A DNA stretch of 56,478 bases from Patescibacteria group bacterium (GTDB lineage Bacteria > Patescibacteriota > Microgenomatia > Daviesbacterales > UBA10151), in NCBI GenBank assembly GCA_023379125.1, contig JAMCSY010000004.1, positions 1-56,478 on the forward strand. Reading direction: 5' to 3'. Within the stretch, counting starts at the first letter, position 1. Every line of letters begins with the position of its first letter. Below the pieces are notes generated by a model that did no database searches, was not told the DNA's origin, and saw only the letters and a list, made by a program, of their open reading frames with translations. Shown here one piece after another: positions 1 through 24,804 of the stretch. The position numbers and the translations under genes are program-made.

Positions 1-3000
1 AAGGAAACATTAGGAGCAGCTGGTGGTATGGGAGTGGGGGTAGCTGTAGGCAAGGGAGTAGGTGTGGGAGTAGCGGTGGGTAAAGGTGTGGGGGTTGGAG
101 TAGGTGTCGGTAATGGGGTTGGTGTAGCTGTAGGCAATGGCGTGGGTGTGGGTGTTGCTGTGGGCAATGGGGTTGGAGTTGGGGTGGGACAAATTGGTAC
201 ATTAAAGGTAGCTGATGGCCCATTAGTGCCGTTATAGAGTCTGACATAATAAGTAGTATTAGGTTGAGTTGTCAGTGCTCCACTCACACCTACAAAACCA
301 TTAAAGCCAACTGGGGCAGAAGTTGATGTTGTACCCACACTGACTCCTTTATGATAATAGCTAACAAAATTAGCAAATTGGGAAATATCCACCCAAGTTA
401 CAGGAGATGAGGGATTAACCCAAGAGATAGTCACTTCTGATCCTGAATAAGCTCCTGTCACACAAGATACAGTGGAAACTGTGGGAGCAGCAGCTGGAAT
501 TGGCGTTAGTGTAGCAGTGGGCAATGGCGTGGGCGTGGGCGTAGCGGTGGGTAAAGGTGTAGGAGTAGGTGTAGCAGTTGGTAAAGGAGTCGGGGTGGGA
601 GTAGCGGTGGGCAAAGGTGTAGGAGTGGGTGTTGGTGGAATAGGTGTGGCGGTTGGTGTGGGTGTGGGATTACCTCCTTGAGGGATAGGAGTAGGTGTTG
701 GGGTAGGAGTTGGAGCAGAACTGACAGTGAGATCACCAGAGGTAACTGTTGATGAACCAGCCGTGGCTTTAAAGTAATACTGAGATGATCCACCAGATTG
801 ATATTCTGCAACCCAAGAAGCAGTAGCTGTTCCTAGACTCATCGTCGAATCAGCTGGAGAATACTGAGCTTGAGTATCGCCTAAAATTCCACCTACTTTC
901 CAGACTTGCCAAGATATTGTTTGGCCACTACAGTTTGTACCACTAACTGTTAGGCCCACAGTATCGCCCTCAATCACATTAGATGCACCCCAGATAGGAT
1001 TTGATAAAGTACAAGTTGGTACAGGGGTAGGCGTAGGTGTAGGTGTACTATTGGGTGTAGTTGACTCTACTTTAATCGCTACATCATTGACTAGACTGGA
1101 CACTTGGATTGATAACGATCCAGAAGTAGGAGTCACTTGAGTTGATGACAGAATCTGGCCATTATATGGACTCCAAACTTCTACTTTATAAGTATCACCA
1201 AGAAGATTAGAAAGAGTGATCGTAGGAGATATCGCGGCTGGAGTTGAGCCTGAGTTATACCAAGTGTTATTGCGATTCTGCACCCAAAGATACTCAGCTT
1301 TCTTGTCAGCTCGTCTCATGGCAAATACCCGAGCACTAGGATCAGTGGCTGTAATAGTCTCTCCACTATAACTATTCGGCTTATCCGCAGTAGTCATTAA
1401 GTAAGTAAAGTGTGCCCCATCATAATCAACGCCATTAAAGAAGTTGCTGGCATATTTTTTCTCCACATATTTGTAGGTATTAACATATGAATCCTCTTGT
1501 TGCCAATACCAGTCAATCGGGCTAGTTCCTAGTGGTGAGAATAAACCTGCCCACAACTCATTGTGGATTGCTCTTCTACCACCCTCACCGGTAGTTCCTT
1601 GGGTGTTAGCTTGATTCCAGACAGTAGTCCCTACTCCAATTTCTCCCCAAACCCAAGGTTTTTGTGCTCCACTCCATGAGCTTCCATCACCAGCCAAACC
1701 ATTACAGTAAGCTGTATTGAGGTTTCTTAAACACCAAGCATAAGAATAAACAAAATTAGCGGCATCGTTTGTTAAGCTAGCCGGATAACGCGAACTCATC
1801 ATATAGTCATGATAGTTTGCTACATCCATTGCACCTGATGACCAAAAAGCAGCACTAGCGTTTTGCGATCCTTGAGAAGTAGTGCGATTATGCCGGTAAG
1901 GATCAGTTGCTGCTTGGTATGCGCCATAATTTTGATAAAAAGTATACAAGCTAGAGTTACTGGGAATATTGCCATGCTCGTTGTACATCTCCCAGTTCAA
2001 AACTGAAGTAGAATAACCCCAGCGAGCTATCCGGTAGCGAATATTTCTTTCCCAGCTTTTAAGTACCCAAGCTTGCGAGTAATCTGCAACATCAGGATTC
2101 ACTGGCCAAGTAAACCAAGGTCCAGAAACAGAGGCCAGCTGTATTTCAATCTTATTCTGCTGAGCGGAGGCAATGATTTTATCCAAGTCATAGGATGCCC
2201 ACTGATTGAAATAATTACCCAATGGTCTGGGAAGAGAAGAATTAGTATCAGGATCGTCATTAGTAATACCCTTTGCAAAATGTCGCTCTATATCACCATC
2301 AGACAAAACGTTGTATAGAATATTCCCATTAGCATCAGTTGGTCCCAGCACTACATCATCAATATAAGTTGAACCAGTCCCAGCTGTCTGTAGCAAATCC
2401 ACATGGACAATTTGATTCCCTGAACCTGGAGTAAAGCTAACTGCATATTGTGTCCAGCCAGTTGTCCCCGACACTCCCGTTGTTTGAGTCAGCACAGTTC
2501 CGCTACCAAAAAGGTCTCCACCTCTGACTTGTACTTGAGCAACTCCTCCACTCACACTATTGGTTGCTACCCAAGCTGTTAACTTATAAGTAGACGTTGG
2601 TGTAGCCAAAGCAACACGTTGATACCAGCCATTACCTGGTGTTGGGTTAGCACTTCTTAGCCCATCATGAACATTACTATTACCTGGGCCAACTTGAACA
2701 CCTTGTGCCTGACCAAACGTAGTATTTTGCTGCATCCAAACTGGCTGTGCTCCTTCCACACTAAGAGCAAAATCAGCCTGATCCCACACCCTCAACAAAT
2801 TCACCCCATTTGGCCCAAAAGTATTATTAAAGGTGTCTTCATAATCATAGGAACGAAGTGCTTGATTATTCCACCATTGATGACCAGAAGCGATAGGGAT
2901 AAACGGTGAACCACTGTCATAAGCAAAAAATCTGGGATCCTTGGTACTCTGATGCACAAAACCTTTATTACTAGATGAGATCGTATCAAATGACAGGGTA

Positions 3001-5174
3001 CCTGTTGTGGGATACCTAGTTGTACCATTTTTATCTTGAGTGGTGATGTAATACTGATAAGTGCCCACTTCAGCAGGAGCAAATCTCACATGCCAGCGTC
3101 CACTGTCTAAAGCCCCTAATACCTCTGCGTTAAGTCCCGTATCTCTAACCCGTAAATAATCTTGCATCCAAAATGCGGGCACAGTAATCGACTTGCCTGT
3201 TGGCGAGGTTAAATGCATATCTACCGATACTCCATCCACTCCATACCAACTCATATTAGAGGGATTCGCCGCAGCAGTGTCTGTTGAATCATAGAAGTAG
3301 TAAGGGTTGGCGTAGGTGCGTGACAAGTCAAAAGTCCACTCTACCTTATCGTATTGACCAAAAGTGTTCGAACTGGGAGCAGAAAGATTAGAGACTACAG
3401 GGCCAGCCCCAGTCGATTGAGACACAGTTAGATCGTTTGAGCGCAAACTCGAGCTTTGATAGACCGCATCAAAATGATAAACCGGATCACATGTTCCAAT
3501 AATACAGGCATTAAACCAAGCAGGAGTAGTCCAAGTTGTTGATGCTTGGGCTGCGCTATTAAACGCTGCTGTTAAAGTTGTAATATCCTGATCAGGCAAG
3601 CCTGTCACTGTCCGGCGTACATTAAAGGTTACAACTACACCGTTACAACCAGTATTACTACTCCCTGTGGTATTTAAGGTTACTGTTGAATTTTCTACTG
3701 CTGAGGTAGTGTTCCAAGCTGCTGTGACAATATTGCAGCTAGGTACAGGTGTCGGAGTAGCGGTTGGTGGTACTGGTGTGGCCGTTGCAGTTGGTCCAAC
3801 TGGAGTTGGAGTGGGTGTGCTAGTTGGTACGGCAGTAGTCGGAGTAGGTGTGGCTGTTGGTGGAACTGGTGTTGGTGTGGGGGTCGAGGTCGGGGCACCT
3901 GTTACTCCAATTGAGGTGTAATTAACAGCTAGGATTGGTGCGGCTGTTGTTGAACCATCATAAGAGGTAATATATTTTCTGGCATAAGCACTACCTGTTC
4001 CCTTGATAATTATGGAGATGCTGTTTCCGGGTACCCAATCAGCTCGATTTACAATCGCCTGAATGACTGAGGAAATATCATCTAGATTATAAGCGGTGCC
4101 TGCTGCCCAATTCACATTGTCAGAATGTGTCGCTACTTGAGTAGTGAGAGTTCTTTGTGAGGGTTTATTACTCGTGGAAAAAGTTGGTGAATTACCAATG
4201 TTTTCGCCTTGAATGGTATATGATAAATTTACCCATTGCGAGGAAGACGAAGTCACATTCAAATGCGCTGAGTTAATTGTGGCCCCCTGAGGGATAGACA
4301 CGTTATTAAACCTCAAACCAGTATAACTGGCTGTAGTAGAAGCACCTGTCCCTAACCAAGCAGTCGAAGAGGAGCTGTCAAAAGTTGTGCCATCTTCGGT
4401 GACGTCTCCTGCTGAAGCACTCACTTGAGCACTGACATCCACCCCTACTCCCCCAGCTGGCGGAGTTGGTGTGGGTGTAGGAATCGGTGTAGGCGTTGGT
4501 GTCGATGTTGGCGCTGGGACTGGAGTAGGAGTAGCTGTTGGGCCTGGTGTTGGTGTGGCTGATCCTGAAGCAATTGTCACTGTTAAATTAGTCACCTGAC
4601 CGGCGGTAGTTAACAACTCTGTTGGCGGATTGGCATCCTGGACTAGATTAGTATCAGTGGTTGCTCCAGGGGTATAGTTAAAATTAACAGAGGCTGAACC
4701 TGTGGCTAAAGATTGGAAAGTTAAATTAGCAATTTGAGCAGTACCATTAAAAGCTGAAGTGACGCTACTGTTGGCCCAATTAAAGGCAATTGCCCCAAAC
4801 TCAATAGTTCCATTCTGATTAGCATTAGTAATTACCTGAGCAGAATTGAAATTACCATTACTATCAACTGGGATCACAGTTGATAAGCTAGTACCACTGA
4901 CTGTAGGGGTGATGCTCACTAAAGATAGCTTGCTGGTATCAAAATTTAAGATCACATCAACTCCCCTGATCCCAACCCCATCAGTATTTATAGTAACTGG
5001 CACAGTAAAGTTTTGGCCTGGTGGGACAGCAACAGAGGCAGGCAGTGTAACTGAGGAATTAGCTCCCCCTGCTGCTTGAGCTTGATAGGAATTTCCAGCC
5101 ACCATGAACAAGAGCAGTCCCGTAACCAAGGCAATTGTTCTACTGATGTTTTTTAAAAGATTAACTATTTTCAT
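1..5174 (-). CDS. Giant secreted multidomain protein, partial (at least 1724 aa, C-terminus beyond base 1): signal peptide, cohesin-like domain, five Pro/Thr linkers, Cys-containing beta modules, GH5-like (cellulase superfamily) TIM barrel with an inserted CBM-like module
   Basis: ATG at 5174-5172. Hand translation of the minus frame gives [34 protein letters not shown]..., and every stretch I checked stays open down to base 1. The ORF track lists no ORF in this frame over 5 kb, as expected if it omits ORFs with no in-window stop. [11 protein letters not shown] (1971-2003) and [11 protein letters not shown] (about 1631-1665) resemble the GH5 acid/base NE and nucleophile E motifs. The N-terminal [44 protein letters not shown] is cohesin-like. 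Confidence 0.85.
25..195. repeat. Imperfect tandem repeat array encoding a Pro/Thr linker ([12 protein letters not shown]-like units) of the giant CDS
   Basis: Repeated ggtgt/ggagt/gtagc units. The 20-mer gtagcggtgggtaaaggtgt at 71-90 recurs at 541-560. Confidence 0.8.
505..712. repeat. Imperfect tandem repeat array encoding a Pro/Thr linker of the giant CDS
   Basis: Minus-frame translation reads [63 protein letters not shown]. It shares DNA units with 25-195. Confidence 0.8.
3741..3900. repeat. Low-complexity Pro/Thr linker-coding region of the giant CDS
   Basis: Minus-frame translation reads [53 protein letters not shown]. Confidence 0.75.
4455..4565. repeat. Low-complexity Pro/Thr linker-coding region of the giant CDS (between the cohesin-like domain and the next module)
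   Basis: Minus-frame translation reads [35 protein letters not shown]. Confidence 0.75.
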
Positions 5175-5218
5175 CGTGCAACAAGAATTTTAGTTCATTG
5201 CAAAGCAAGAGCTTTAGC

Positions 5219-7639
5219 TCATTCAATTTTTATCTGACTTGGATCAGTAACAATTATCTCTGGATCTTTACCCTCTGGCCAGTACAGAGTCACAAATCCA
5301 GTAATCCGAACTTTCTTCCCCTTCAAAGTCATTGGGTCATAAGAAAACTTCGGCAGATCCTGATTAAAGACCCTTACTAACAAAGCTCCATCATGCGAAT
5401 CAGTAAAGCCCAAGTAAATTGCTTTGGGCAAATGATTAACCGCTGAAGCAATTGTACCTACTACTGTAGCATATCTTCCCTCATACTTCGGTGCATCCTG
5501 ATAAGAAATCACGGGAACTGTTGACAAATCCAAAGGTGCCAATGATGTACCTAAAACCTGAGCCGTAGAACTTTGCGCAAGATTTTGCTGCGCTGGTGCT
5601 TGGCCTAAGGGATTACCGTTTTGCAAAGCGATAATACCTCCATCCCCAGTTTTAACAAGAACTAACCCCGCACTAGCAATTATATACGGAGTCGAGCCAC
5701 CATTATTACTGTTCCAGTACTCATAGAAACCTGGTGGATACGAACGCGAGTCACCATAAGAATAAAGCTCCTGGCTACAATATCTAGTTGTTCCATTAAA
5801 TGGACAATCTGACGGTCCATAAGTAGTACCTGATCCCCCTGGGTAGATTTGGGGATTACATTGAGTATTAGTAGTCGGACAATAAACTTGACGCCAAATA
5901 ACGTAAGGCGGGTAAGTTGTTCTAATCGGATTGCTCAAAGTGCTCCCATAAGCAGCACTACGATCAGTGATTGTCGCTCCTTGAGATGACAACCAATGAT
6001 TATGAAAAACACTATTCCCGATCATGGTCAATTGCATTTGCTCATCTGTTCTAATAATCAGTGTGCCGTTTGCCCAATTAGAAAAACTCACAAACCTGAC
6101 ATCACCAGCCTGATAACCAGAAGCAGTAGTATTATCAAGTTCCATCTCTCCTAAAGTAGAGTCTTCTCTCCCATCACAATAACCAGATCCACCCGGAGCT
6201 CCAGAACCAGCAGGATCACCACAGGCCAAAGCATTTCTAAAAACAACATAAGCTACTTCTTGACCACCCATATTAGCAACTACTGGCTGTGGGCCCATTG
6301 GCAAAGTGCCACCATCACCAGCTCCACCATTCCCCACATTAGCGATAAATGCTTGAGCACCAGTATCCAAACTAAGTGGGAACAAAGGCTGCTGGGTAGG
6401 ATTGCTTTGTAAGAAAGTTCTAATTGCTGAATTAGTCGTGGGGAAAGCTCCACCTGTGCCTGGTCCATTCCATAAAGTCTGCCATTCTAACCTATATCTG
6501 ACAAAAACTAAGCCATGTTGGTCAGCAATCACTGGCCAACCATTAACAGCTTCAGTTAAGTTGCTGGAAGGATCAGCAGTAGTGTAAGCTCTGGAAGTGG
6601 GCTTAACTCGCCATTTCCTTGAACCATCAGCAACATTAACAGCATGAACATAAAGATCTTGTGTCACATAAACAAGGACATTACGTGAAGGTGAATAAGC
6701 AGCTGGAGTCACTCCATTAGATCCACCGCTATATGTCCAAGTGCTTTGCATTGTTGAGGTATTGACGGCAATCAAATTACCATTGGCTGCAACTACATAA
6801 ATTGTGGAACCAACTATCGTTGGGGCTAGATTCAAAGCGCTACCAGCATTAAAAGTACCCGCAATTGAACCATTGGAAGCATTTAGTTTATACAAATTGT
6901 TATTACCAGAAGCCACATAAACATATCCGGAATTATAAGCGGCAGTCGCTGAAAGTGTCCCCAAAGAAGTATTCGACCAAGCCACACTTCCATTAGTTTG
7001 ATTAAGCGCATAAACCCCACCAGTTGCCACCACATAAACCAAACCATTACCTGTAATTGGTTGAACTAAATTAGGAATACTGATATGCCCTGATTGGGGC
7101 TGCCCATTAGCATCTGCTCCATTCCATTGCCATTTATACTGCCAGGGAGTTGCTACAGACTGCGCTGTGTAATTAGTATGTTGGGCATCATGACCAAATT
7201 GAGTCCACTCTCCAGAAGAAGAAATTGGGGTGGGAGTTGGTGTAACTGGATAATTATTAACAATATTAGCAAAGTCAAAAGAGTTTTCTTTACCATCTTG
7301 GTATTGGTCTAAGGTACCAGTTACTCCTGTTCCCCAGCTTTGCATTGCTAATTTAACATCACTACCATTAACGCTGCCATCATTATTCACATCACCATTA
7401 CCCAGAGTGGGAGCTGCCAGAGAAAAAGGTTTTTGAAAGATTAAAGAAAACAGTCTAGCTCTAAAGGGAAATAATATGGCTACTGCTAAAAACAGCACAA
7501 TACCTACAGCAGAGATAGAAGCAGCTATTTTAGTTTTTTGGTCTTGCTGATTATATAGCTCCTTTAGCTCAAGCTCATCAGCTCTCTCTTTGATTCCTTT
7601 AAAAATCCTGCCACCCATCTTTTGAATATTTCTTAACAT
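5219..7639 (-). CDS. Membrane-anchored dockerin-like plus PQQ/BamB-like beta-propeller repeat protein
   Basis: Track ORF 5219..7678, which starts on GTG. ATG at 7639 (MLRNIQKMGG...) aligns with the paralog N-terminus MPKSILKMGQ. TM segment KIAASISAVGIVLFLAVAILFPF. Duplicated Ca-loop motif DVNNDGSVNGSD ... DQYQDGKENSFD (nt 7253-7396). Repeated blades such as LVYVVATGGVYALNQTNGSVAWS and YVYVASGNNNLYKLNASNGSIAG. Confidence 0.8.
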   Translation of the reverse strand: MLRNIQKMGGRIFKGIKERADELELKELYNQQDQKTKIAASISAVGIVLFLAVAILFPFRARLFSLIFQKPFSLAAPTLGNGDVNNDGSVNGSDVKLAMQSWGTGVTGTLDQYQDGKENSFDFANIVNNYPVTPTPTPISSSGEWTQFGHDAQHTNYTAQSVATPWQYKWQWNGADANGQPQSGHISIPNLVQPITGNGLVYVVATGGVYALNQTNGSVAWSNTSLGTLSATAAYNSGYVYVASGNNNLYKLNASNGSIAGTFNAGSALNLAPTIVGSTIYVVAANGNLIAVNTSTMQSTWTYSGGSNGVTPAAYSPSRNVLVYVTQDLYVHAVNVADGSRKWRVKPTSRAYTTADPSSNLTEAVNGWPVIADQHGLVFVRYRLEWQTLWNGPGTGGAFPTTNSAIRTFLQSNPTQQPLFPLSLDTGAQAFIANVGNGGAGDGGTLPMGPQPVVANMGGQEVAYVVFRNALACGDPAGSGAPGGSGYCDGREDSTLGEMELDNTTASGYQAGDVRFVSFSNWANGTLIIRTDEQMQLTMIGNSVFHNHWLSSQGATITDRSAAYGSTLSNPIRTTYPPYVIWRQVYCPTTNTQCNPQIYPGGSGTTYGPSDCPFNGTTRYCSQELYSYGDSRSYPPGFYEYWNSNNGGSTPYIIASAGLVLVKTGDGGIIALQNGNPLGQAPAQQNLAQSSTAQVLGTSLAPLDLSTVPVISYQDAPKYEGRYATVVGTIASAVNHLPKAIYLGFTDSHDGALLVRVFNQDLPKFSYDPMTLKGKKVRITGFVTLYWPEGKDPEIIVTDPSQIKIE
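7252..7548. repeat. 297-bp block near-identical to 10654-10950 (encodes the TM anchor plus dockerin module)
   Basis: Base-by-base comparison at an offset of 3402 bp found one synonymous difference (7495 g vs 10897 a). Confidence 0.9.
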
Positions 7640-7780
7640 AATGCCATGCGAATGGTTTACGCCCCTCATAACACACACCCCAACTATCCCAACTAAGGCC
7701 TTAAGTTTAGGTTATATGTTCTTACAAAACCAGTCAATAGGCACAATCCTCTACCAGATAGAAATTAGATAAAAAAATAC

Positions 7781-10700
7781 TTACGAACCAATCCTGCCAT
7801 AATAAATACTGGTGTTAGTCAGACTCCCATTATTGGCAGCAAAAAAGATAAACTCAATCACCCCCGGTTGGTTAAAACCAACCGCTGACCATTTTACCGA
7901 AGGACTAGCATCAAAGCTGACTGTAGCTGAATGACTGGCAAACACCTGTGATGAAGCCCAACTTCCATCACTATTTCGCTTCTTTATACACATATCATCC
8001 ATTGAAGTACAGGAACTGTTCTGCGGATGACCATGCCCAATCAGGTAAATGCTACTCGATGAATTGATGGCAACGTTTGGATCGTGACTGTATGCTGGGA
8101 CCGCTTGGTCAGACCAACCACTTCCCGAATCAGTCACAAAATGGACATGTCCATAGTCACCAGTGGCATCATAATATTCAATGTAGGCAAGGTATTTAGT
8201 GCCACTGCTTGTAATAACTAATGCTGGGCCTTGATCAATATCTACCCCATTGGAAAGACTCGTCCAAACTTGGGCAGAATTAACTTGGCTGACACTTCCC
8301 CAGGTACCAGTTGCAGATTTAGTGCGCGCATAGATATTACCCGCTACCAGACTAGCTGAGCTATTAGGAGACACCCAAGCCACAGTCACTGAATTATCTG
8401 CCGGTGAAACAGCTAAAACTGGATGCCTGGCAATCCTACTCCCATCATCTATAAAAGTAGGACCAGCAGTCTGGGTCAAATTATCTGTGGAACTATTATA
8501 GCTAAAGGCACGATAAGTAATCCGATTACCAGTTGACCAGTAAGCCACTTGTAAAGTTCCGTTTTGATCAAACATCCCCGATAAGCCTGAGGTACCGAGT
8601 TGACTGGATACTTGAGTAGCATCTGTGGCCAGTGTTTTGGTAGCTTTAAAGGTGTTATTGGAAATATCGAAGGGATAATCTAGTACTTGGCCATTTTGTG
8701 TATTTACTAAAACATGGATGATATTACCACCGTTATAGGCGGCATCTACTGAAATCAGCGTTGTACCCAGAGATAATGAGGTGCTAGTAAAATCTGCAGA
8801 AGAAGAAGGGAAAGCAGCGCCAGTGGTACTGTAAACTTTAATTGTATTAAGAGTATCTGCTTGCCCCACAAATATATATAGTTTCCCATTATCAGCACGT
8901 AAGATTTGTCTTGGTACAACATCAGCAAAACCACTACCTACTACAAACTCAGCATTACTAACTGGAGAACTAGTTGGAGTGGGAGTTGGGGCTACTACCG
9001 TTGGAGTTGGTGTGAGTACAACACCACTATGCCGAAAAACCATTAAGTCTCCTCCATTCCCCTCTACTACCATTAAATTATCTGAAACGTAGGTATAGCG
9101 TGGTAAGAAACCAGCGCTATATGATGTTCCAGCAGTATTACCACTACCTATTTTCCAACCAGGTGGATCAGCTACCCCCCAATAGCTCCAAAAACCAGGT
9201 CCATTAAAATAACGCCCACCATCTGTCACATAATTCAAATTAGTGCAAGTAGTGTAGTGGGTTGTATTATTCTGATCTGTACAACTACTCTGCAAGGCTC
9301 TCATCACAGGAGGGAGATTACTAGTAGCAATTGGGCTGGAGTAAGTTAATCCTAAACTGGCTGAGCGATCAGTAATCCTCACTGCTGAACTAGCAGCCCA
9401 ATGGGCATCCAAAATCGTATTACCTGCTACTGTAATCGGAGTTTGCTCATCAGTAATATACGTATAACTATTGCCACCATATCCGTTATAATTACTCATC
9501 TTGATAAAACGCAAGTCTCCAGCTGATAGACCACTAATTGTGTTGTTGTTCAAAACCATTTCCCCCATATGTGAATCCCAACGAAAATCTGGTGGCGAGC
9601 TTTGGCCATTGCGGAAAGGCACATAAGCTACTTCTGAACCATCTGCATTTACCTTTACTACTGGCTGTGTACCCATTACACCAAAGCCATTGCTACTACC
9701 AGAGATCATATCTTCAGTACTGCCATATCCCACAGCTGGTATGAAGCTTGCTGCTCCAGTATCCAAACTCAAAGCAAACAAATTTTGATTCTGAGGATTA
9801 TTAGTTAGCCAAGTCCTGATCGTAGCAAAATCGTTAGGGAAAATATTATTCGTACTGGGATAGGCCTGCATGGCTGCTGGATCAAGCTGCATTCTAATTA
9901 AAACTATGCCGTTTTTCTCTGCAATGACTGGCCAAGCTCGATCAAATTGATTGCCTTGTGGAGTTCCTCCTAAAGTAATACCGGTTCCGGGTGAATTAGG
10001 TGTCGGCTTAATTCGCCATTTTTGACTACCGTTATTATTATTGACTGCTTGTACATATAAATCATTGGTGGCATAGATAATAATATCTCGTGAGAGAGAG
10101 TATGCCGGTGGTGTGGCTGTAGTTGAGCCTGATGTATATACCCAAGCAGCTGCCATATTACTAATCGCTACTTTATGTAATTTACCATCATCAGAAGTTA
10201 CATAAGCAAAACTGCCTACTATTAATATTGCTTTATTCAGGCCACTACCAGAATTATAAGTACCAGCAATACTACCAGTTGAACTATTAATTTTATATAA
10301 ATTCCCATCTGCCCCACCAGCCAAAACATAACCAGTTGTTGGATCATAAGCAGGTGCTGCATTGAAGCTAGTGTTAGTCACATGCCAACTTTCAGCTCCA
10401 GTGTTTTGATTTAAAGCATAAAGCCCCTGGGAGCCTGCTGGAACATAGATATTACCTCCACCATTGACTGTCCTGGCCTCATTTGGGGCATCATAAAAAT
10501 GATTTCCAGTCCCACCACTTGCATCTGGTCCATTCCAAGTCCACAATAATGTCCAGGGAGTTAGTGGATCAACTGGGCTAAAACCCGTTCTCTGTGCATC
10601 ATGGGCATCTTGGGTCCACTGTGTACTAGTAGTAGTGGTTGGAGTAGCAGAGAAATTATTAACAATATTAGCAAAGTCAAAAGAGTTTTCTTTACCATCT

Positions 10701-11050
10701 TGGTATTGGTCTAAGGTACCAGTTACTCCTGTTCCCCAGCTTTGCATTGCTAATTTAACATCACTACCATTAACGCTGCCATCATTATTCACATCACCAT
10801 TACCCAGAGTGGGAGCTGCCAGAGAAAAAGGTTTTTGAAAGATTAAAGAAAACAGTCTAGCTCTAAAGGGAAATAATATGGCTACTGCTAAAAACAACAC
10901 AATACCTACAGCAGAGATAGAAGCAGCTATTTTAGTTTTTTGGTCTTGCTTACGATATAAATCCGCTAATTCCAAATCACTAGTTTTATCCTTCACACTC
11001 TGAAAAAAATTCTTCCCAATCTGTCCCATCTTGAGTATGCTTTTTGGCAT
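7781..11050 (-). CDS. Membrane-anchored dockerin-like plus PQQ/BamB-like beta-propeller plus C-terminal Asp-box/BNR-like propeller protein
   Basis: 1089-aa ORF with an ATG start. Same TM and dockerin module as 5219..7639. Blades such as NIYVPAGSQGLYALNQNTGAESW. C-terminal half has Asp-box-like SATGTWGS, DSGSGWSD and NSDGSWAS. Confidence 0.85.
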   Translation of the reverse strand: MPKSILKMGQIGKNFFQSVKDKTSDLELADLYRKQDQKTKIAASISAVGIVLFLAVAILFPFRARLFSLIFQKPFSLAAPTLGNGDVNNDGSVNGSDVKLAMQSWGTGVTGTLDQYQDGKENSFDFANIVNNFSATPTTTTSTQWTQDAHDAQRTGFSPVDPLTPWTLLWTWNGPDASGGTGNHFYDAPNEARTVNGGGNIYVPAGSQGLYALNQNTGAESWHVTNTSFNAAPAYDPTTGYVLAGGADGNLYKINSSTGSIAGTYNSGSGLNKAILIVGSFAYVTSDDGKLHKVAISNMAAAWVYTSGSTTATPPAYSLSRDIIIYATNDLYVQAVNNNNGSQKWRIKPTPNSPGTGITLGGTPQGNQFDRAWPVIAEKNGIVLIRMQLDPAAMQAYPSTNNIFPNDFATIRTWLTNNPQNQNLFALSLDTGAASFIPAVGYGSTEDMISGSSNGFGVMGTQPVVKVNADGSEVAYVPFRNGQSSPPDFRWDSHMGEMVLNNNTISGLSAGDLRFIKMSNYNGYGGNSYTYITDEQTPITVAGNTILDAHWAASSAVRITDRSASLGLTYSSPIATSNLPPVMRALQSSCTDQNNTTHYTTCTNLNYVTDGGRYFNGPGFWSYWGVADPPGWKIGSGNTAGTSYSAGFLPRYTYVSDNLMVVEGNGGDLMVFRHSGVVLTPTPTVVAPTPTPTSSPVSNAEFVVGSGFADVVPRQILRADNGKLYIFVGQADTLNTIKVYSTTGAAFPSSSADFTSTSLSLGTTLISVDAAYNGGNIIHVLVNTQNGQVLDYPFDISNNTFKATKTLATDATQVSSQLGTSGLSGMFDQNGTLQVAYWSTGNRITYRAFSYNSSTDNLTQTAGPTFIDDGSRIARHPVLAVSPADNSVTVAWVSPNSSASLVAGNIYARTKSATGTWGSVSQVNSAQVWTSLSNGVDIDQGPALVITSSGTKYLAYIEYYDATGDYGHVHFVTDSGSGWSDQAVPAYSHDPNVAINSSSSIYLIGHGHPQNSSCTSMDDMCIKKRNSDGSWASSQVFASHSATVSFDASPSVKWSAVGFNQPGVIEFIFFAANNGSLTNTSIYYGRIGS
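10654..10950. repeat. 297-bp block near-identical to 7252-7548
   Basis: See the partner copy at 7252-7548. Confidence 0.9.
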
Positions 11051-13129: not shown

Positions 13130-13591
13130 TCAGTTCATAGGCTTAATGTGAGCTATGCTCGCATTAGGCATGAGTGTTCTTAGTTTCTTTAATTCACTAT
13201 CAGAGATAGGATTCCTAGTAAGATCGATTGTAGTTAAATGTTTTAGCTGAGTAATACTCTTGGGTAACGAGCTGAGCTGATTATTATTCAGATATAAAGA
13301 TTGAAGATTTGCAAGCTTCAGGACATCAACCGGTAAGCTTGCAAGATTAGTATTAGATAAATCTAGGTAACAAACATCCTCAGATTGTTTTAAAGCTTCC
13401 TCAAGACTTTTATAAGTTTTAGTATCTGTACAGGTAGTTACTCGATTCTGATCTAGAAATTTAAAGGTAGAAAGAATTTGATCAAAAGTCTCCTTAGCCA
13501 CATTGCTATTTGCTGATGAATAATACTTTACATATATAAAATACTCCTTGTCATTTTTTAGCAGGCTAACTCCATCTGTGGGAAAATCCAT
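13130..13591 (-). CDS. Leucine-rich-repeat (LRR) protein segment. The reading frame continues upstream without a start codon to the TGA at 13889-13891
   Basis: LRR units LDLSNTNLASLPVDVLKLANLQSLYLNNNQLSSLPKSITQLKHLTTIDLTRNPI. The 99 codons upstream (13592-13888) are open in the same frame and look coding (YGFYFKYPPNF...). Confidence 0.7.
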   Translation of the reverse strand: MDFPTDGVSLLKNDKEYFIYVKYYSSANSNVAKETFDQILSTFKFLDQNRVTTCTDTKTYKSLEEALKQSEDVCYLDLSNTNLASLPVDVLKLANLQSLYLNNNQLSSLPKSITQLKHLTTIDLTRNPISDSELKKLRTLMPNASIAHIKPMN

Positions 13592-14325: not shown

Positions 14326-14373
14326 CTTTGAGAATGAAATGATAAGTAGGAAAAAGGCTGATTAATATTTAGG

Positions 14374-14445
14374 TGGGCAGTAATGGAGTTGAACCATTCA
14401 CTTCGTCATTATCAGTGACGCGTTCTACCGATGAACTAACTGCCC
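14374..14445 (-). tRNA. tRNA-Ile (anticodon GAT)
   Basis: Minus strand reads GGGCAGT TA GTTC ATCGGTA GAAC G CGTCA CTGATAA TGACG AAGTG AATGG TTCAACT CCATT ACTGCCC A. This folds as a full cloverleaf. CCA is not encoded. Confidence 0.9.
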
Positions 14446-14481
14446 TTCTTAACACAAGCAAGTTCATTGGCAAGCTTTGCT

Positions 14482-14501
14482 TACCGATGAACTAACTGCC
14501 C
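14482..14501 (-). repeat. 20-nt duplicate of the tRNA-Ile 5' end (GGGCAGTTAGTTCATCGGTA), embedded in a hairpin
   Basis: Identical to 14426-14445. It continues as GTTCAT-C-GGTAAGC-AAA-GCTTGCC-A-ATGAAC, an imperfect 13-bp stem, and is not a tRNA. Confidence 0.8.
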
Positions 14502-14531
14502 ACAAACCAGGTTATTTTACACTGATTTAAG

Positions 14532-15515
14532 CTATTCAGCAAACACTTCTGGATATATACAGCGAATCTGTTGCGCGACAGGTTTAATATTCTGCAGCGC
14601 TCCCACATTCAAGATTGGTATCTTTGTTCCAATATTATCTCGCACCAGTCTTGTTGATCTGGCTGAAGGATCAATTGTGACTACTGCTCTTAAGTTTGTG
14701 AGGTTCTGCCATGCCTGGCGGTAATCAACCGTTCTAGTTAACTGATTATAGGCTACATCCAATCCATCCGCGGCCGTCTTCACCCAACCTTCCAGCTGGC
14801 CACCTAGTCTCATTGGAGAAATCATGGAACCATCAGGGTTAGTAAAGTTTTCCTTCAATGTATCAATGAGCGTACGGAATTCTTTTTCTACATTAAGCAT
14901 GAAGGGCGAGTGAAAAGCGTCAGTAATATCGCTAAGCGGAATCAACCTACCTCTCCCATTATTACGTACTAAAACTTCTTCAAAAAACCGCGCCACATCA
15001 GCAGTAAGTCCAGATAATATGGTCTGGTTAGGAGTATTAATATTAGCTAACGAAACTTGTAGCGAATTGGCAGTTTGCTTAAGCTGATCTATGATCATTT
15101 CTGGCGAAACACCAACCACTGCCGCCATCCCCCGACCCACCGGATTGACATTAATTTCTCGGCACAACCTTTCCCGTTCATTAACCAAAAAAGCCAGCGG
15201 TTCTAAATCAATAATGCCTCTTTGCACTAAAGCCGGATTCTCACCAATACTGTGACCAAGTACAAACTCTGGTTGCTTATTATCAAACTCTTCAACCAAA
15301 GTATGTGATAATCCCAAACTTACAGCAACTAGAGTTACTTGTTTTTGCCAGGAAGCCAGAGTCTCTGGACCAACTATCGCTCGAACTCGGTCAATAACCT
15401 CCAGATAAGACTTACCAGCAACTGTGTCTGGATTCTCTAACATTCCCTCCCTTCTACCATTTTGTGGAGGAAAAACTATTGCCAGTCCAGGTAAAGTCTC
15501 AACTTGAATAGCCAT
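14532..15515 (-). CDS. fabD: Malonyl-CoA:ACP transacylase (FabD)-like acyltransferase
   Basis: GHSIGE active-site motif and AFHSPFM motif. The N-terminal GQGSQ motif is degenerate (PPQNGRREG). The track start at 15587 overlaps tRNA-Cys, so I prefer the ATG at 15515 (MAIQVETLPG...). Confidence 0.7.
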   Translation of the reverse strand: MAIQVETLPGLAIVFPPQNGRREGMLENPDTVAGKSYLEVIDRVRAIVGPETLASWQKQVTLVAVSLGLSHTLVEEFDNKQPEFVLGHSIGENPALVQRGIIDLEPLAFLVNERERLCREINVNPVGRGMAAVVGVSPEMIIDQLKQTANSLQVSLANINTPNQTILSGLTADVARFFEEVLVRNNGRGRLIPLSDITDAFHSPFMLNVEKEFRTLIDTLKENFTNPDGSMISPMRLGGQLEGWVKTAADGLDVAYNQLTRTVDYRQAWQNLTNLRAVVTIDPSARSTRLVRDNIGTKIPILNVGALQNIKPVAQQIRCIYPEVFAE

Positions 15516-15522
15516 AAAGCAG

Positions 15523-15593
15523 AGGCCTGGACCGGACTTGAACCGGTGTACGCGGTTTTGCAGACCGCTGGATAACCACTCTCCCACCAGGCC
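15523..15593 (-). tRNA. tRNA-Cys (anticodon GCA)
   Basis: Minus strand reads GGCCTGG TG ... GCGGT CTGCAAA ACCGC GTAC ACCGG TTCAAGT CCGGT CCAGGCC T. The discriminator is U, as is typical of tRNA-Cys. Confidence 0.9.
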
Positions 15594-15642
15594 TTCTGGG
15601 CTGATTTTAGCATAGCAAGATCAGACAAAAAAGAGGAGTAGG

Positions 15643-15870
15643 TTAAGTACTCTGCTGTGAATTAATCGCTCTAGGAGAATCAGAAGCACCTGTTTCTACT
15701 GATAACATATGAGCTTGTAACACTCCTTCAAAAAAATTTGGCTCATGAGTTACAGGATCACCCAAGAAATTATTCCTAATTATCTTAACCATACTGATAA
15801 CTTTTACGATTAATGGTATGGAGGCAGTTTGTGGCTGTTCTGACCTGACTTCATACAAGCGTTCATTCAT
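15643..15870 (-). CDS. Small hypothetical protein
   Basis: 75-aa ORF whose ATG lies 6 nt downstream of a strong TTGACA-17-TATTTT promoter. No recognisable family. Confidence 0.4.
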   Translation of the reverse strand: MNERLYEVRSEQPQTASIPLIVKVISMVKIIRNNFLGDPVTHEPNFFEGVLQAHMLSVETGASDSPRAINSQQST

Positions 15871-15905
15871 AGTCAGAAAATACCACTTAGCCTTAAGTTT
15901 GTCAA
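15871..15905 (-). promoter_or_regulatory. Sigma70-like promoter TTGACA-17-TATTTT, 6 nt upstream of the ATG (leaderless geometry)
   Basis: Minus strand reads TTGACA AACTTAAGGCTAAGTGG TATTTT CTGACT ATG. Confidence 0.6.
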
Positions 15906-15920
15906 AAAATTTTCTGACAC

Positions 15921-15949
15921 AAAAAAAGCCTCCTAACGAAAGAGGCTTT
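15921..15949 (-). terminator. Rho-independent terminator downstream of the 16S rRNA
   Basis: Minus strand reads AAGCCTC-tttcgttag-GAGGCTT followed by a T-run (TTTTTTT). Confidence 0.7.
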
Positions 15950-16048
15950 GTTGTGTGTAAAAATCACTCAATACTAATCTCCAAGCACAAAGATTGATTT
16001 TTTGGTAACTGTTCTCCATAACATCTTGAGGGATGCAAAAAATCCAAA

Positions 16049-16074
16049 ACTTTGATTCCAAAAAAGTGGTGGGG
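16049..16074 (-). other. 3' arm of the 16S rRNA processing stem (pairs with 17826-17850)
   Basis: actttgattccaaaaaagtggtgggg is the inverted complement of cccaccactttttcaaaatcaaagt apart from a 3-nt internal bubble. Confidence 0.7.
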
Positions 16075-16225
16075 ATAGCTTGTTTTAAGAGGGCTATCAG
16101 TCCTCTATCACCCATTATCCCAAGGGTTAACTTGAGATGCGTGAAAGGTGATCAATGGATCAAACTATGGCTACCTTTGACCATTGGCCAATTAAGGAAT
16201 CCTCTAATTTGATCAAACACTCCAG

Positions 16226-17700
<1,475 letters not shown>

Positions 17701-19475: not shown

Positions 19476-20297
19476 ATGCAAAAAGTCAAACCAATCCTCA
19501 TTATTTTAGGAGTTCTGATTCTTCTAGGGCTCATCTTTTTTGCCCTCCTCAAAACTGGTGTATTAGACAAGGTAGGATTAGGTAAATACTTAGGTCGAGC
19601 AGCCACAATCGCCAGTAACAAATCAGATCTGGCATTTTTAAATTCTCAGTATCCAGTGAGCATCTTTATGGGCAAGATTGAGCAAATTTCTGGAGACACT
19701 TTAACAGTTAGCCAACAAATGCCCACCACTACTGGTGCTACTAAGCAAGTTACTTACCATATTACAGTAACTCCTCAGACTAAGGTTCAGAGGCCAAATG
19801 GAATTCCAGGAGTTATCTTACCTACCCAAACTTATACTATTCAAGATCTTAAGGTGGGTGAAACAATCACTGTGAACACTAACCAAGATTTAAGAAACTT
19901 ATTAGGAGATACTTTCATTGCCTCCACTATTGATGCTTCAGCTACAATTGTTTATCTATCAGGGACCATCACCACAATCAATTCTGATAGTTTTGACTTA
20001 ACAGTTCCTCCACCTTTTTATCTTGACCCCAACCAAGATCAAATTACTCAAGAAACAGTTTATCAAATTCAGGTTAACCCCCAAACCACAACTACTCAGC
20101 TGGGTAGTTCTGGAAACAAGATACAAACTACCAACCTTCAACTAACCAGTCTCAAGGTAGGGCAAGAGGTTATGGCTTTTGTTAACTTGGATAGTCTAAA
20201 TGGCAATAAGATTACTGCTCTGAACATTCAACCCATCAAAGGTACTGCTTCATCTAGTCAAAACAATGCTTCCACATCAGCTCAACCTAACCCATAA
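19476..20297 (+). CDS. Hypothetical membrane-anchored or secreted protein with an internally duplicated beta-rich module
   Basis: N-terminal TM segment ILIILGVLILLGLIFFALL. Duplicated pattern VTYHITVTPQT...LKVGETITV and VYQIQVNPQT...LKVGQEVMA. Confidence 0.7.
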   Translation: MQKVKPILIILGVLILLGLIFFALLKTGVLDKVGLGKYLGRAATIASNKSDLAFLNSQYPVSIFMGKIEQISGDTLTVSQQMPTTTGATKQVTYHITVTPQTKVQRPNGIPGVILPTQTYTIQDLKVGETITVNTNQDLRNLLGDTFIASTIDASATIVYLSGTITTINSDSFDLTVPPPFYLDPNQDQITQETVYQIQVNPQTTTTQLGSSGNKIQTTNLQLTSLKVGQEVMAFVNLDSLNGNKITALNIQPIKGTASSSQNNASTSAQPNP

Positions 20298-20311
20298 GCA
20301 GAGAGGATTTC

Positions 20312-20340
20312 TTGACATTTTAGGTTCAATCTACATAAAC
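20312..20340 (+). promoter_or_regulatory. Promoter-like TTGACA with a downstream A/T-rich -10 candidate (CATAAA/ATAAAC)
   Basis: cttgacattttaggttcaatctacataaac, located 9-11 nt upstream of the ATG at 20349. Confidence 0.35.
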
Positions 20341-20348
20341 TGAAGTTA

Positions 20349-21968
20349 ATGAGTAAATCAAGTTTCGTGTTTAACAAAAAACAGATTCTCTTTAATTTAA
20401 TATTATTAGGTGTTTTTGTTCTCCTACTACCTCCTTTAAAGGATGTCCTAGCTCAAACAGCACCTACTCCAATTCTCCAAGAACAGAGTAGTAATCCCAA
20501 AGTTAATGGTCCTGCATCTGATGTTTTAGCTGCTTCTACCACAGTTCCCTACCAAAATATCTCTGGTGATGTGAATATCTCTGGTAATACTGATATGATA
20601 GGCAGACTAACAGTGGGATCAAATGGAGTAGATAGAGTTAATGCTGGAAACAATACCACTGGAGGAAACTATGCTCAATATGCACCTAACAGCTGGAGAG
20701 ATGGTTTTGTTCTTTACCGAGCAGGTACTCAAAAAGGCTCTTTGGGTACAGATTCCACAGGAGCTAAACTACAAATCTTTGTAGGTAGTTCTTCTTCCGA
20801 TACTACCCAGACGTTAACCTTAGATTCTTCTGGTAATGCTGCTGTCAGAAATGCAATGTATGCCCCAACACTTTGTTTAGGCTCACCTACTCCTGATTGC
20901 CGTTCCGTCTGGCCTTCAGCTACAGGTGGTGGCTATTGGAGCAGAAATGCTGCTAGTGGGTATGTGTATCCAACTACTACTTCTGACAATATTGTTCTGG
21001 GTAATAATTACAACTGGAGTATTACCTCAAATGCTACCTCAAATGATCCTAATTGGGGTTTTGGAGTCGAGCATCCAGGATCACAATATTTTACCGAAGC
21101 TAAGTTTTGGGGGGCAGGCAATAATCAGGCTTTTAGAGTACTTGATATGAGTAACGGGACAACACCATTGTTTGTTGGAGGAGGAGGTAATGTTGGTTTA
21201 GGTACTAATAATCCTGTTAATAGACTCCAGGTTGAGGGCAATATTCATACAGATGGAGGATCAATCTTTTTAAGAGGAGGAACAGCAGGGGGAGATCAGT
21301 ATGATGTGATTAAATGGAATAGCTCTACAGACAAGGTGGACATTGGTGGGTATAACGGAGTTACTTTAGGACCTACCAGCACTTCTGGTCCTAATAGTGT
21401 TAGTGCTATGTTTACTGTTGATACCAGAGGGCCAGCTTGGGGAAACAGTATGTCTAGAACTGAAACTATGACTGATGCCAATAACACTAATCCTACTACT
21501 GGCTATCGCAGTGGTTTTTACCAATCGCTTGGTGGTGCCAATGTACCTCCTAGTTGTGCAGGAACTTGGTGTCACGTCATTAGCGACAGCCATGAAAATA
21601 CTAATTATGCTCTTCAGCTAGCTAGTGGATTCTTTAATCAAGATGATCTTTACTATCGTGATGTTGATGCTGGAGCTGCTGGGATGGGTACTTGGAAAAA
21701 GATCCTTGCAGTACCAGCTAACGTCGCAACGCCATTTACCAACATGTGGATGGGGCAAGTTTCCGGAGTTTGTACCAACTGTGCAACTCATGTTAATATG
21801 ACAGGTGCAACCTTTAAGGGCACACCAATGGTTTTTGTCAGTATCAACCCAATGGGAGCAGTCAAGCCAACAGCTTATCCTATGAATGTGACCAGTGCTG
21901 GCTTTGATCTACAAACCACAGATGGACTTCCGGCAACTGTCTACTATATGATAGCCTTCGGTCCTTGA
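20349..21968 (+). CDS. Secreted fibre-like protein, paralog A (constant N-terminal module plus divergent C-terminal head)
   Basis: Signal or anchor segment LILLGVFVLLLPP. GNVGLGTNNPVNRLQVEGNI resembles motifs I recall from phage tail-fibre-type proteins. Residues 22-278 are identical to paralog B. Confidence 0.8.
   Translation: MSKSSFVFNKKQILFNLILLGVFVLLLPPLKDVLAQTAPTPILQEQSSNPKVNGPASDVLAASTTVPYQNISGDVNISGNTDMIGRLTVGSNGVDRVNAGNNTTGGNYAQYAPNSWRDGFVLYRAGTQKGSLGTDSTGAKLQIFVGSSSSDTTQTLTLDSSGNAAVRNAMYAPTLCLGSPTPDCRSVWPSATGGGYWSRNAASGYVYPTTTSDNIVLGNNYNWSITSNATSNDPNWGFGVEHPGSQYFTEAKFWGAGNNQAFRVLDMSNGTTPLFVGGGGNVGLGTNNPVNRLQVEGNIHTDGGSIFLRGGTAGGDQYDVIKWNSSTDKVDIGGYNGVTLGPTSTSGPNSVSAMFTVDTRGPAWGNSMSRTETMTDANNTNPTTGYRSGFYQSLGGANVPPSCAGTWCHVISDSHENTNYALQLASGFFNQDDLYYRDVDAGAAGMGTWKKILAVPANVATPFTNMWMGQVSGVCTNCATHVNMTGATFKGTPMVFVSINPMGAVKPTAYPMNVTSAGFDLQTTDGLPATVYYMIAFGP
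20411..21182. repeat. 772-bp direct repeat, apparently identical to 22086-22857
   Basis: Offset of 1675 bp. The encoded 257 aa are identical, as are the off-frame track ORFs 20926..21150 and 22601..22825. Every DNA line I compared matches. Confidence 0.9.
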
Positions 21969-21990
21969 TGATAAGTTGTTAACATTTTGC

Positions 21991-22017
21991 TTGACTTCTC
22001 TAGTTTGCTCATACTAA
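21991..22017 (+). promoter_or_regulatory. Promoter-like motif TTGACT-N15-TACTAA(GCT)
   Basis: ttgacttctctagtttgctcatactaagct. The same geometry and the same catactaagct box recur at 23832-23861. Confidence 0.45.
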
Positions 22018-22038
22018 GCTAAAGTTAACTAACGACTT

Positions 22039-23823: not shown

Positions 23824-23831
23824 CTTTATTC

Positions 23832-23858
23832 TTGACTTCCCCGCCACACTCATACTAA
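23832..23858 (+). promoter_or_regulatory. Promoter-like motif TTGACT-N15-TACTAA(GCT)
   Basis: ttgacttccccgccacactcatactaagct, located 9 nt upstream of the GTG at 23868. Confidence 0.45.
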
Positions 23859-23867
23859 GCTGGAATT

Positions 23868-24713
23868 GTGAGAGAATTTAAATATCTTCTGTTCAGCTTA
23901 ATTTTTATTTCAGGATTATTTTTTGCTCCCTGGTTGGTTTCCCGAGTATCTGCTGAGGTGGCTACCAAGCAAGACTGGATTGGTTTTTTTCCTGTCTACA
24001 CTACCGCTGTTGGTTGGCATAACTCTGCTAATGCTGCCTATTTAGCGATACCTAACAGCTGGGTTTATGCTAATAATAATTGTAATCGCAACTGGAATAC
24101 TGCTACTCCTAATCTATCTATCTCTGGTTGTAGTTTGGGTAGCATGGGAGTTACTTTTGACGGAACAGGCGAACCCAATAATTTAACCCCCGGTGCTTAT
24201 GAATTCAGGTTAAATATTAATGACACTGGTACAGGTAACTCCAGCAACCCCCTAACCTCCCTAGGTAGCGACGGAGCTATGCTTTCGCAATCAAAGGTTG
24301 TCTGGAAAAAGTTCTGGATGAACAATAATCCTTTAAGTTGCGTGATCACGGGCTCTAGTGCCTATGTTGATATAAACTTGTATGTTAGAAGTAGTGCCTC
24401 AGCAGTCGGTGCTTCAATCTTGAAAGGAATAGAAACTGTTAATATTTTACGCAACACACCTCCTTCAGGAACTTTAAACTCTGTTGGAAGTAGTAATCCA
24501 GCGGCTGGAACTTATCGAGACACATCAGTGGTGATTGGCCAATCTTATACCTATCAGCTCCAAGCAGTGACTACCCGAGGTGTAGCCAGACCTTCTGAAA
24601 ATACTGCTAGTATTTCTATTGATACCTCTACTTGCCTAAGTTATAGTTCTTGGTTGCAGACAATTGGTGGTGATGTTAACGCCAACAATCAGCTCAACCT
24701 TCACTCACGATAG
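23868..24713 (+). CDS. Secreted hypothetical protein (signal peptide, beta-rich, FN3/Ig-like C-terminal region)
   Basis: GTG start. Signal peptide LLFSLIFISGLFFAPWLVSRVSA-EV. There is no in-frame ATG near the N-terminus. Confidence 0.65.
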   Translation: MREFKYLLFSLIFISGLFFAPWLVSRVSAEVATKQDWIGFFPVYTTAVGWHNSANAAYLAIPNSWVYANNNCNRNWNTATPNLSISGCSLGSMGVTFDGTGEPNNLTPGAYEFRLNINDTGTGNSSNPLTSLGSDGAMLSQSKVVWKKFWMNNNPLSCVITGSSAYVDINLYVRSSASAVGASILKGIETVNILRNTPPSGTLNSVGSSNPAAGTYRDTSVVIGQSYTYQLQAVTTRGVARPSENTASISIDTSTCLSYSSWLQTIGGDVNANNQLNLHSR

Positions 24714-24804
24714 TAACTTTGTAAATAATAAGCTTCCAACCAGTGGTTTTGTGCTTTGTGCAATTGACTTTTCTCTGAGGCTGTGCCAGCATAATTAATA
24801 GGAG

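Follow-up and report, generated by a model that had tools for sequence, protein, structure and literature searches.

We describe three consecutive genes at one end of a 56,478-nucleotide stretch of DNA from a Patescibacteria group bacterium (positions 1 to 56,478 of contig JAMCSY010000004.1, assembly GCA_023379125.1; hereafter the window) that probably encode an extracellular, non-cellulosomal cohesin-dockerin complex organised around a beta-propeller and a DUF5060-type glycoside hydrolase (GH) of clan GH-A. The genes, here called C, B and A in their order along the minus strand, are all co-oriented, and every feature of theirs given below lies on that strand. Gene C (7781-11050) starts at an ATG and encodes 1089 residues comprising an N-terminal export or anchor module, a dockerin, an 8-bladed propeller and a C-terminal 7-bladed lectin-like propeller. 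Gene B (5219-7639) encodes 806 residues from an ATG, within an open reading frame (ORF) that reaches a GTG at 7678, and shares this layout up to the 8-bladed propeller, ending instead in a small OB-fold-like domain. Gene A (5174 to 1) encodes at least 1724 residues, its C-terminus lying beyond the window; a signal peptide and a cohesin are followed by further domains, the DUF5060-type hydrolase and small domains with Pro/Thr linkers. The intergenic gaps measure 141 and 44 nt, and no terminator-like site was found in either of them. The ORF list and translations, read together with Pfam, homologs and searches against the PDB, uphold the three-gene arrangement put forward in an original prediction made from the sequence alone. 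The window covers about 30% of a 186,849-bp contig, and profile scans of its 56 kb detect no further cohesin or dockerin, giving totals of one cohesin and two dockerins.

Residues 43-175 of A (4650-5048) match the Pfam Cohesin family (PF00963) with 37.8 bits against a cut-off of 24.1 (E 2.6e-9), and the top PDB matches of a profile built on A-like cohesins are cohesins only (2vn5_A at 2.1e-9, 1g1k, ScaB and 5nrk_A), which bears out the cohesin-like domain of the original prediction. A word-indexed homolog search with the A cohesin alone returned no matches; relatives of this cohesin are present in loci L003, L064, L074, L081, L082 and L093-L096. The dockerins occupy residues 85-132 of C (10655-10798; second repeat DQYxDGKxNSxDF, from Pfam, a profile against the PDB and alignment A4) and residues 82-129 of B (7253-7396), where codon comparison and Pfam place a protein sequence identical to that of C. 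The dockerin string quoted in the original prediction (DVNNDGSVNGSD...DQYQDGKENSFD) is present and identical in both proteins. With Dockerin_1 (PF00404), C scores 23.2 bits and B 21.9 bits around a cut-off of 22.9, a difference that arises from the flanks only; scores of 27-35 bits are reached by close relatives within the subtype. The top PDB matches of the subtype profile are again dockerins only (4fl4_A at 3e-8, 2y3n_B at 3.8e-8, the next at 3e-6). The first calcium loop, DVNNDGSVNGSD, is a canonical 12-residue EF-hand-like loop with Asp or Asn at positions 1, 3, 5, 9 and 12. The second, DQYQDGKENSFD, carries a Tyr at position 3 where Asp or Asn is canonical, and this Tyr is kept across an asymmetric subtype defined by the second repeat DQ[YF]xD...N.xD. 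Dockerins on B and C stand by virtue of the subtype profile, their Pfam scores being borderline; taken with the profile-against-PDB searches, the hidden Markov model (HMM) searches for PF00404 and PF00963 leave both assignments statistically sound.

The pairing of these two modules is supported by their distribution. The window dockerin subtype occurs in six of 41 other dockerin loci; an A-like cohesin gene is adjacent in all six, and the subtype is found in none of 33 loci without an A-like cohesin (Fisher one-sided p = 6e-6). Three ascertainment routes, starting from the propeller, the cohesin and the dockerin, converge on this covariation, and loci with more distant cohesins hold other dockerin subtypes. 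Close relatives of the window cohesin occur only next to propeller-hydrolase cassettes, and an A-like cohesin gene lies directly beside such a cassette in L003, L064, L074, L081, L093, L094 and L096 (Roizmanbacteria CP065004.1). The order of B and A is kept in L081, where an ortholog of B with the same architecture (P0189: export module, dockerin, propeller, OB-like end) is followed after 2 nt by a gene whose product opens with a signal peptide and then a cohesin sharing 47% identity with that of A. The closest homolog of C, P0002 in L003, is followed by a gene encoding a cohesin, a DUF1349 domain and a dockerin. In L074, L093, L094/L095 and L096, the last a complete Roizmanbacteria genome, a single chain of GH, dockerin, propeller and OB-like domain stands beside a small cohesin protein that begins with a hydrophobic stretch and carries an A-like cohesin together with a domain resembling CBM4_9 or LamG.

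A second use of the same subtypes is seen in L082. There, a protein of more than 3298 residues (1-9894) with a window-type dockerin at residues 2588-2633 lies directly upstream of an A-like protein composed of signal peptide, cohesin, immunoglobulin (Ig)-like, FN3 and PA14 domains. Since a window-type dockerin on this large protein sits by an A-like cohesin, the cohesin-dockerin subtype appears to serve other cargo as well.

We scanned custom HMMs for five modules over 76 non-redundant propeller loci; contig ends make the resulting counts lower bounds. The hydrolase is fused to the propeller (16 loci) or encoded in a neighbouring gene (17 loci) in 33 of the 76, and the propeller protein carries a dockerin in 27. 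Cohesins are present in 14 loci, 13 of which also hold a dockerin. Many single chains combine propeller, DUF5060 hydrolase, cohesin and dockerin (P0049, P0043 and P0055), and because the two modules are fused in single chains, propeller and hydrolase are likely to act together. Separate GH and propeller genes, each bearing a dockerin, are found in loci resembling the Candidate Phyla Radiation (CPR): L004, L005, L008, L036, L041, L057, L064 and L072. The idea that the window trio forms one cohesin-dockerin unit thus gains comparative backing from the related-genome survey, through the 33 of 76 loci with a fused or adjacent hydrolase, the gene order in L081 and the subtype counts of six in six against none in 33.

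Relatives of the propeller core number in the hundreds at 45-63% identity, in Chloroflexi, in CPR bacteria of the Microgenomates group (Gottesman-, Woese- and Roizmanbacteria) and in other phyla. The nearest homologs of A, B and C all come from metagenome-assembled genomes (MAGs) of the Microgenomates group; in a scan of GTDB species representatives the best match reaches 59%, and Chloroflexi proteins are 55-60% identical to the window propeller and hydrolase. Eleven of the loci (L006, L008, L032, L036, L041, L057, L062, L064, L066, L072 and L074) carry CPR-like genes in MAGs labelled 'uncultured Gammaproteobacteria/Pseudomonadales', labels that look unreliable. Two loci hold a third cassette gene after the hydrolase and propeller genes (L004 15229-17100 and L005 8442-10361), encoding an N-terminal dockerin and a domain of about 550 residues without a Pfam match. 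Neither this dockerin-Y third gene nor the 552-residue dockerin protein of L004 has a counterpart in the window.

Beyond its cohesin, A is a large multidomain protein. It opens with a classical signal peptide (5073-5174, residues 1-34; hydropathy 1.57) predicted from the sequence to be cleaved at …NSYQAQA/AGG, the slash here and below marking the cleavage point. A domain without a known family or Pfam match (3915-4469, residues 236-420) precedes a small Cys-flanked beta domain, also without a Pfam match (3405-3767, residues 470-590), of which sequence comparison reveals a second copy at 765-1067 (residues 1370-1470). The same Cys-flanked domain recurs behind a cohesin in scaffoldin-like proteins of other metagenomes (L082 9728-13123; P0233). 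Pfam and PDB profile matches assign residues 592-1329 (1188-3401) to a DUF5060 Ig-like domain (3042-3233, residues 648-711; 40 bits in Pfam) followed by a clan GH-A (beta/alpha)8 catalytic domain interrupted by a CBM4_9-like insertion (2349-2624). In the remainder (1-764, residues 1471-1724), tandem DNA repeats give rise to Pro/Thr linkers, which are accompanied by one more small domain; the protein then runs past the window. No other Pfam families match the unassigned parts of A and C, and NCBIfam offers no informative family for A, B or C.

The nearest solved relative of the A hydrolase is PDB 9gmj, matched with E 2e-17 by the single sequence and 2.7e-80 with a profile. A displays the hallmarks of clan GH-A, namely a (beta/alpha)8 domain, an N-E motif with the putative acid/base Glu and, further on, a putative nucleophile Glu. 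The putative acid/base E1066 (1977-1979; WEMYNEHG) corresponds in the alignment to the Glu that Gln replaces in PDB 9gpc, and the putative nucleophile E1178 (1641-1643; GEIG motif) follows about 110 residues later. Both are invariant across 24 homologs (alignment A2), and the predicted catalytic motif of A is intact. The Pfam GH5 family PF00150 does not match A; PF00150 or PF13204 is carried only by relatives at 25% identity, and the GH5 mannanase 3ziz matches the profile remotely (E 2e-6 over about 100 residues). The original prediction had a cohesin fused to a GH5-like enzyme. The two modules do reside on one protein, but they are not directly fused, about 400 residues of other domains intervening, and the enzyme is of the DUF5060 type of clan GH-A, for which 'GH5-like' is approximate only.

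The propeller cores of C (8951-10633, residues 140-700) and B (5537-7225, residues 139-701) are 42% identical (alignment A1). PQQ_2 matches them with 55 bits (C) and 72 bits (B) at a cut-off of 27.6, a custom HMM recovers the core of B, and AlphaFold predicts an 8-bladed propeller for the core of about 560 residues (pLDDT 90.8, pTM 0.91). The PQQ/BamB-like blades of the original prediction thus hold on Pfam and on a confident 8-bladed model. The nearest folds found by Foldseek are BamB, tetrathionate hydrolase and PQQ dehydrogenases, with target TM-scores of 0.65-0.79 for BamB; the likeness to PQQ-type dehydrogenases is one of fold only, at 11-12% identity. Invariant Asp, Glu, His and Arg residues in the core across 40 homologs, including D349, E358, D395, E396 and H411 as numbered within the 140-700 segment of C, suggest a specific ligand or active site. 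A BamB-like function was considered and rejected, the propeller being fused to secreted hydrolases in several phyla.

The two proteins differ behind the core. The second propeller of C (7784-8950, residues 701-1089; pLDDT 78, pTM 0.85; no Pfam match) is modelled as 7-bladed, and its Foldseek matches are the Photorhabdus PLL/PHL lectins, the GH145 enzyme BT3686 and a PL42 rhamnose-glucuronate lyase. The Photorhabdus lectins it resembles bind fucose and O-methyl-sugars, and the domain is conserved in P0002 and P0004. The C-terminal domain of B (5222-5590, residues 684-806) is a weak OB-fold-like assignment (Pfam tRNA_anti-codon, E 0.0011, below the cut-off) conserved in P0189, P0158 and P0243.

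At the DNA level, the likeness of B and C is confined to 322 bp at 96.9% identity by blastn, the remainder being undetectable. Within this segment, a block of 98 codons (7253-7546 in B, 10655-10948 in C) covering the export module and the dockerin contains a single synonymous difference, and outside the shared block the proteins are 49% identical. Codon comparison of the block indicates a probable recent gene conversion or module copying. Because the near-identical block spans both the hydrophobic module and the dockerin, the two propellers present the same dockerin. A dN/dS estimate on the block was dropped, one difference in 98 codons denoting recent conversion and no measurable selection.

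These observations suggest the following mechanism. A would be exported through its classical signal peptide, and its cohesin would capture the dockerin at or near the mature N-terminus of B or C. With identical dockerins and one visible cohesin, two alternative 1:1 assemblies, A-B and A-C, would result, each joining the hydrolase with its carbohydrate-binding module (CBM)-like insert to a propeller; A-C would add the lectin-like propeller and A-B the OB-like domain, both probably glycan-targeting modules. Docking would rebuild non-covalently a propeller-hydrolase unit that is covalent elsewhere. In Chloroflexi this unit is one polypeptide; in the closest CPR relatives it is a single GH-dockerin-propeller chain, which would dock to a small cohesin protein; and in the window the hydrolase would have been relocated to the cohesin protein, with the propeller gene duplicated relative to those closest relatives. 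We infer the binding of A to B and C, its calcium dependence and stoichiometry, the extracellular location and the substrate, which the second propeller of C, being lectin-like, and the CBM-like insert of A suggest to be a glycan.

The N-terminal module of B and C, which we term ANC (10805-10969, residues 28-82 of C; 7403-7567, residues 25-79 of B), bears on whether the two proteins remain at the membrane. Both proteins begin with a charged tail of about 40 residues followed by a 23-residue hydrophobic segment (residues 41-63 in C; Kyte-Doolittle mean 2.73 over 19 residues). In C, the module takes in the end of the charged tail, the hydrophobic helix and the motif PF[KR]..LF..L[FY].K..S.A/A; more generally, basic residues lead into a hydrophobic helix about 20 residues long and then PF[KR]D.LF..L[FY]PK..S.A-A. 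The N-termini of B and C match no family in Pfam or NCBIfam. A whole-library search with residues 1-145 of C finds the module at the head of many unrelated secreted proteins of probable CPR origin (including P0189, P0196, P0197, P0202, P0204, P0206, P0209, P0210, P0214, P0215, P0231 and P0233) and of the L004 hydrolase and propeller (P0014/P0128). It is likewise present on scaffoldin-like proteins that have either one cohesin or two (P0204, P0209, P0233 and P0256). The module could be a signal peptide that is cleaved despite its unusual length, or else an anchor specific to the lineage. In the second case, uncleaved modules would keep the dockerins of B and C cell-bound and tether the cohesin-bearing hydrolase A to the surface. 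We regard this tethering as a serious contender that falls somewhat short of even odds. It gains from the strongly hydrophobic, transmembrane-like character of the 23-residue segment, from the distance of the S-x-A site, about 18 residues past the helix and far for signal peptidase I, from the scaffoldin-like bearers, in which a membrane anchor would make sense, and from A itself, whose classical cleavable signal peptide comes with no visible anchor. On the other side, [STA]-x-A stands at a fixed spacing at the module end in 41 of 47 distinct examples, often with a Pro about 5-7 residues earlier, and the mature domain starts directly after it; in B and C the module ends S-L-A/A and the dockerin follows. 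Among the propeller homologs, relatives with an ordinary signal peptide have their signal-peptidase site at this same position (…SNAA/IEEWVQDGHD against …IAFA/EDWMQEAHD), and relatives with an N-terminal dockerin carry ordinary cleavable signal peptides. A dockerin about 20 residues from the membrane would, moreover, probably be sterically crowded. Because the module ends in S-x-A/A where classical homologs are cleaved, B and C may be released, and the sequence comparisons lead us to lean modestly towards cleavage. The 'membrane-anchored' propellers of the original prediction are accordingly not established, given this signal-peptidase-like site. A bolder proposal, which we think unlikely, is that the module is a new sorting signal of Microgenomates-group CPR bacteria that keeps B and C in the membrane with their dockerins cell-bound, so that a 'reverse-anchored' mini-complex holds glycanase and lectin-like propellers at the host contact zone and the propeller is an obligate catalytic partner of DUF5060 hydrolases. 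A role in host attachment of an episymbiont is speculation.

Two further explanations dispute the pairing itself. Adjacency might reflect the propeller-hydrolase cassette only, the A cohesin and the B and C dockerins binding partners encoded elsewhere, such as a separate scaffoldin or other dockerin enzymes. Related genomes do contain many dockerin proteins and separate cohesin proteins, and a similar dockerin in L001 has no cohesin nearby. Yet cohesin and dockerin subtypes covary by locus, the order from B to A with an A-like cohesin is kept in L081, and extra partners would not exclude binding of A to B or C, so that both could hold; we consider a cassette without internal docking to have a low probability. 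Alternatively, the dockerin-like segment could be a calcium-binding or structural module that binds glycan or the envelope and no cohesin, and the cohesin-like domain of A a generic beta-sandwich. To our knowledge, the majority of dockerins and cohesins outside cellulosomes have yet to be tested. The profile searches, however, put both modules squarely among solved dockerins and cohesins, 13 of the 14 cohesin-containing propeller loci also hold dockerins, and subtype covariation is hard to explain without pairing; this alternative is in our judgement improbable, more so than the first. Several points do weigh against docking of A with B and C. The dockerin Pfam score is borderline and the second calcium loop non-canonical, as the generic-module alternative would have it. 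The loci were gathered by similarity searches seeded by the window, and the sample behind the Fisher value is not random. P0004 (L001), with a near-window-type dockerin, has no cohesin within 10 kb. Foldseek yields no carbohydrate-active fold match for the B and C core. Finally, A is incomplete, its C-terminus lying outside the window, and with some 30% of the contig in view the actual partners could be cohesins or dockerins encoded outside it. On balance, a complex of A with B or C remains the reading that we favour.

The window as a whole is low in GC. GC reaches 0.42-0.46 over the three genes (positions 1-10000) against about 0.36-0.40 in most of the window, a rise that could stem from Pro/Thr/Gly/Ala-rich secreted proteins or from horizontal acquisition of the cassette. 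An upstream 551-residue ORF of the window has no counterpart in the related loci, and a small leucine-rich-repeat protein is encoded at 13130-13591. The region 14372-17700 contains a minus-strand gene for 16S rRNA (16226-17700), after which come tRNA-Cys, a FabD-like acyltransferase ORF (14532-15587) and tRNA-Ile. The 14 kb downstream of the 16S hold no 23S gene; the rRNA genes seem to be unlinked, a frequent arrangement among CPR bacteria. The low GC, the unlinked 16S gene and the nearest homologs of the trio all fit a CPR bacterium. Five successive ORFs of 273-594 residues at 19476-25686 are without Pfam matches.

Cohesin-dockerin assembly is understood almost entirely from the cellulosomes of Firmicutes. 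The loci compared here suggest that CPR bacteria and Chloroflexi employ cohesin-dockerin pairs of matching subtype in a recurrent cassette of propeller and DUF5060 hydrolase. Its components occur in three natural forms: a fused chain, a split form with the dockerin on the enzyme and, in the window, a split form with the cohesin on the enzyme. Such variants would amount to a natural experiment in which covalent fusion and cohesin-dockerin docking are interchangeable. If this is true, the system would open a practical route to the surface biology of ultra-small bacteria that have not been cultivated, supply two families of unknown function (the propellers and the DUF5060 enzymes) with a functional partner and add a candidate new export or anchoring signal.

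Full-text searches returned no paper that describes either a propeller-DUF5060 cassette or, for CPR bacteria, a cohesin-dockerin system, and no informative literature on DUF5060 or on PDB 9gmj and 9gpc. Dockerin proteins of Patescibacteria have been noted, one of them essential in a cultivated Saccharibacterium (PMC10633639). The window module is a member of the Microgenomates/Chloroflexi propeller-hydrolase family. With the Microgenomates-group MAGs L074, L093, L094 and L096 and the Chloroflexi proteins P0049 and P0055 it shares propellers at 35-57% identity, hydrolases at 45-60% identity and the same dockerin and cohesin subtypes; it differs in that the hydrolase there is on the dockerin chain and here on the cohesin chain, and in that the window propeller genes are duplicated. 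Among structural relatives, the PDB 9gmj/9gpc 'DUF5060 domain-containing protein' has the same Ig-like DUF5060 domain, (beta/alpha)8 domain and NE acid/base motif, with GH5 mannanases (3ziz) a remote likeness, but lacks the CBM4_9-like insertion of about 230 residues found in the window enzyme. BamB/PQQ-type propellers resemble the core of B and C, and PLL/PHL, GH145 and PL42 the C-terminal end of C, in fold, at 11-16% identity; the outer-membrane assembly role of BamB has no bearing on a protein that is secreted and joined to hydrolases.

The clostridial cellulosome, including CipV/ScaA of Acetivibrio cellulolyticus, draws on the same module families and the same plug-and-socket principle, and the cohesin protein CipV, a catalytic scaffoldin with a GH9 domain plus cohesins (PMC12997984), is likewise an enzyme. 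The window differs in that it shows no scaffoldin with several cohesins, neither an SLH nor a sortase anchor, and no cellulase that could be identified, its one visible cohesin being on an enzyme; the cassette of its relatives is built around a propeller and a DUF5060 hydrolase. The combination that strictly defines a cellulosome, a non-catalytic multi-cohesin scaffoldin with dockerin-bearing cellulases, is absent from the window, beyond which the C-terminal end of A extends. A closer parallel is provided by Clostridium perfringens, in which five glycoside hydrolases carry single cohesins (PMC12997984). Judged by its genes, the trio would share the architecture of these X82-type cohesin-dockerin GH complexes, a small non-cellulosomal system with a single cohesin on the hydrolase and the dockerin on a secreted partner. 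It differs in that its partners are beta-propellers and not known hydrolases, that the organism is probably a CPR bacterium, and that the dockerin sits near the N-terminus, preceded by an export module specific to the lineage. The 'reversed' arrangement of the original prediction therefore holds against the closest relatives, in which the GH is on the dockerin chain and the cohesin on a small non-catalytic protein, but not against known logic, as C. perfringens and CipV illustrate. The docking principle is known; its arrangement on a propeller-DUF5060 cassette is new as a variant of that principle.

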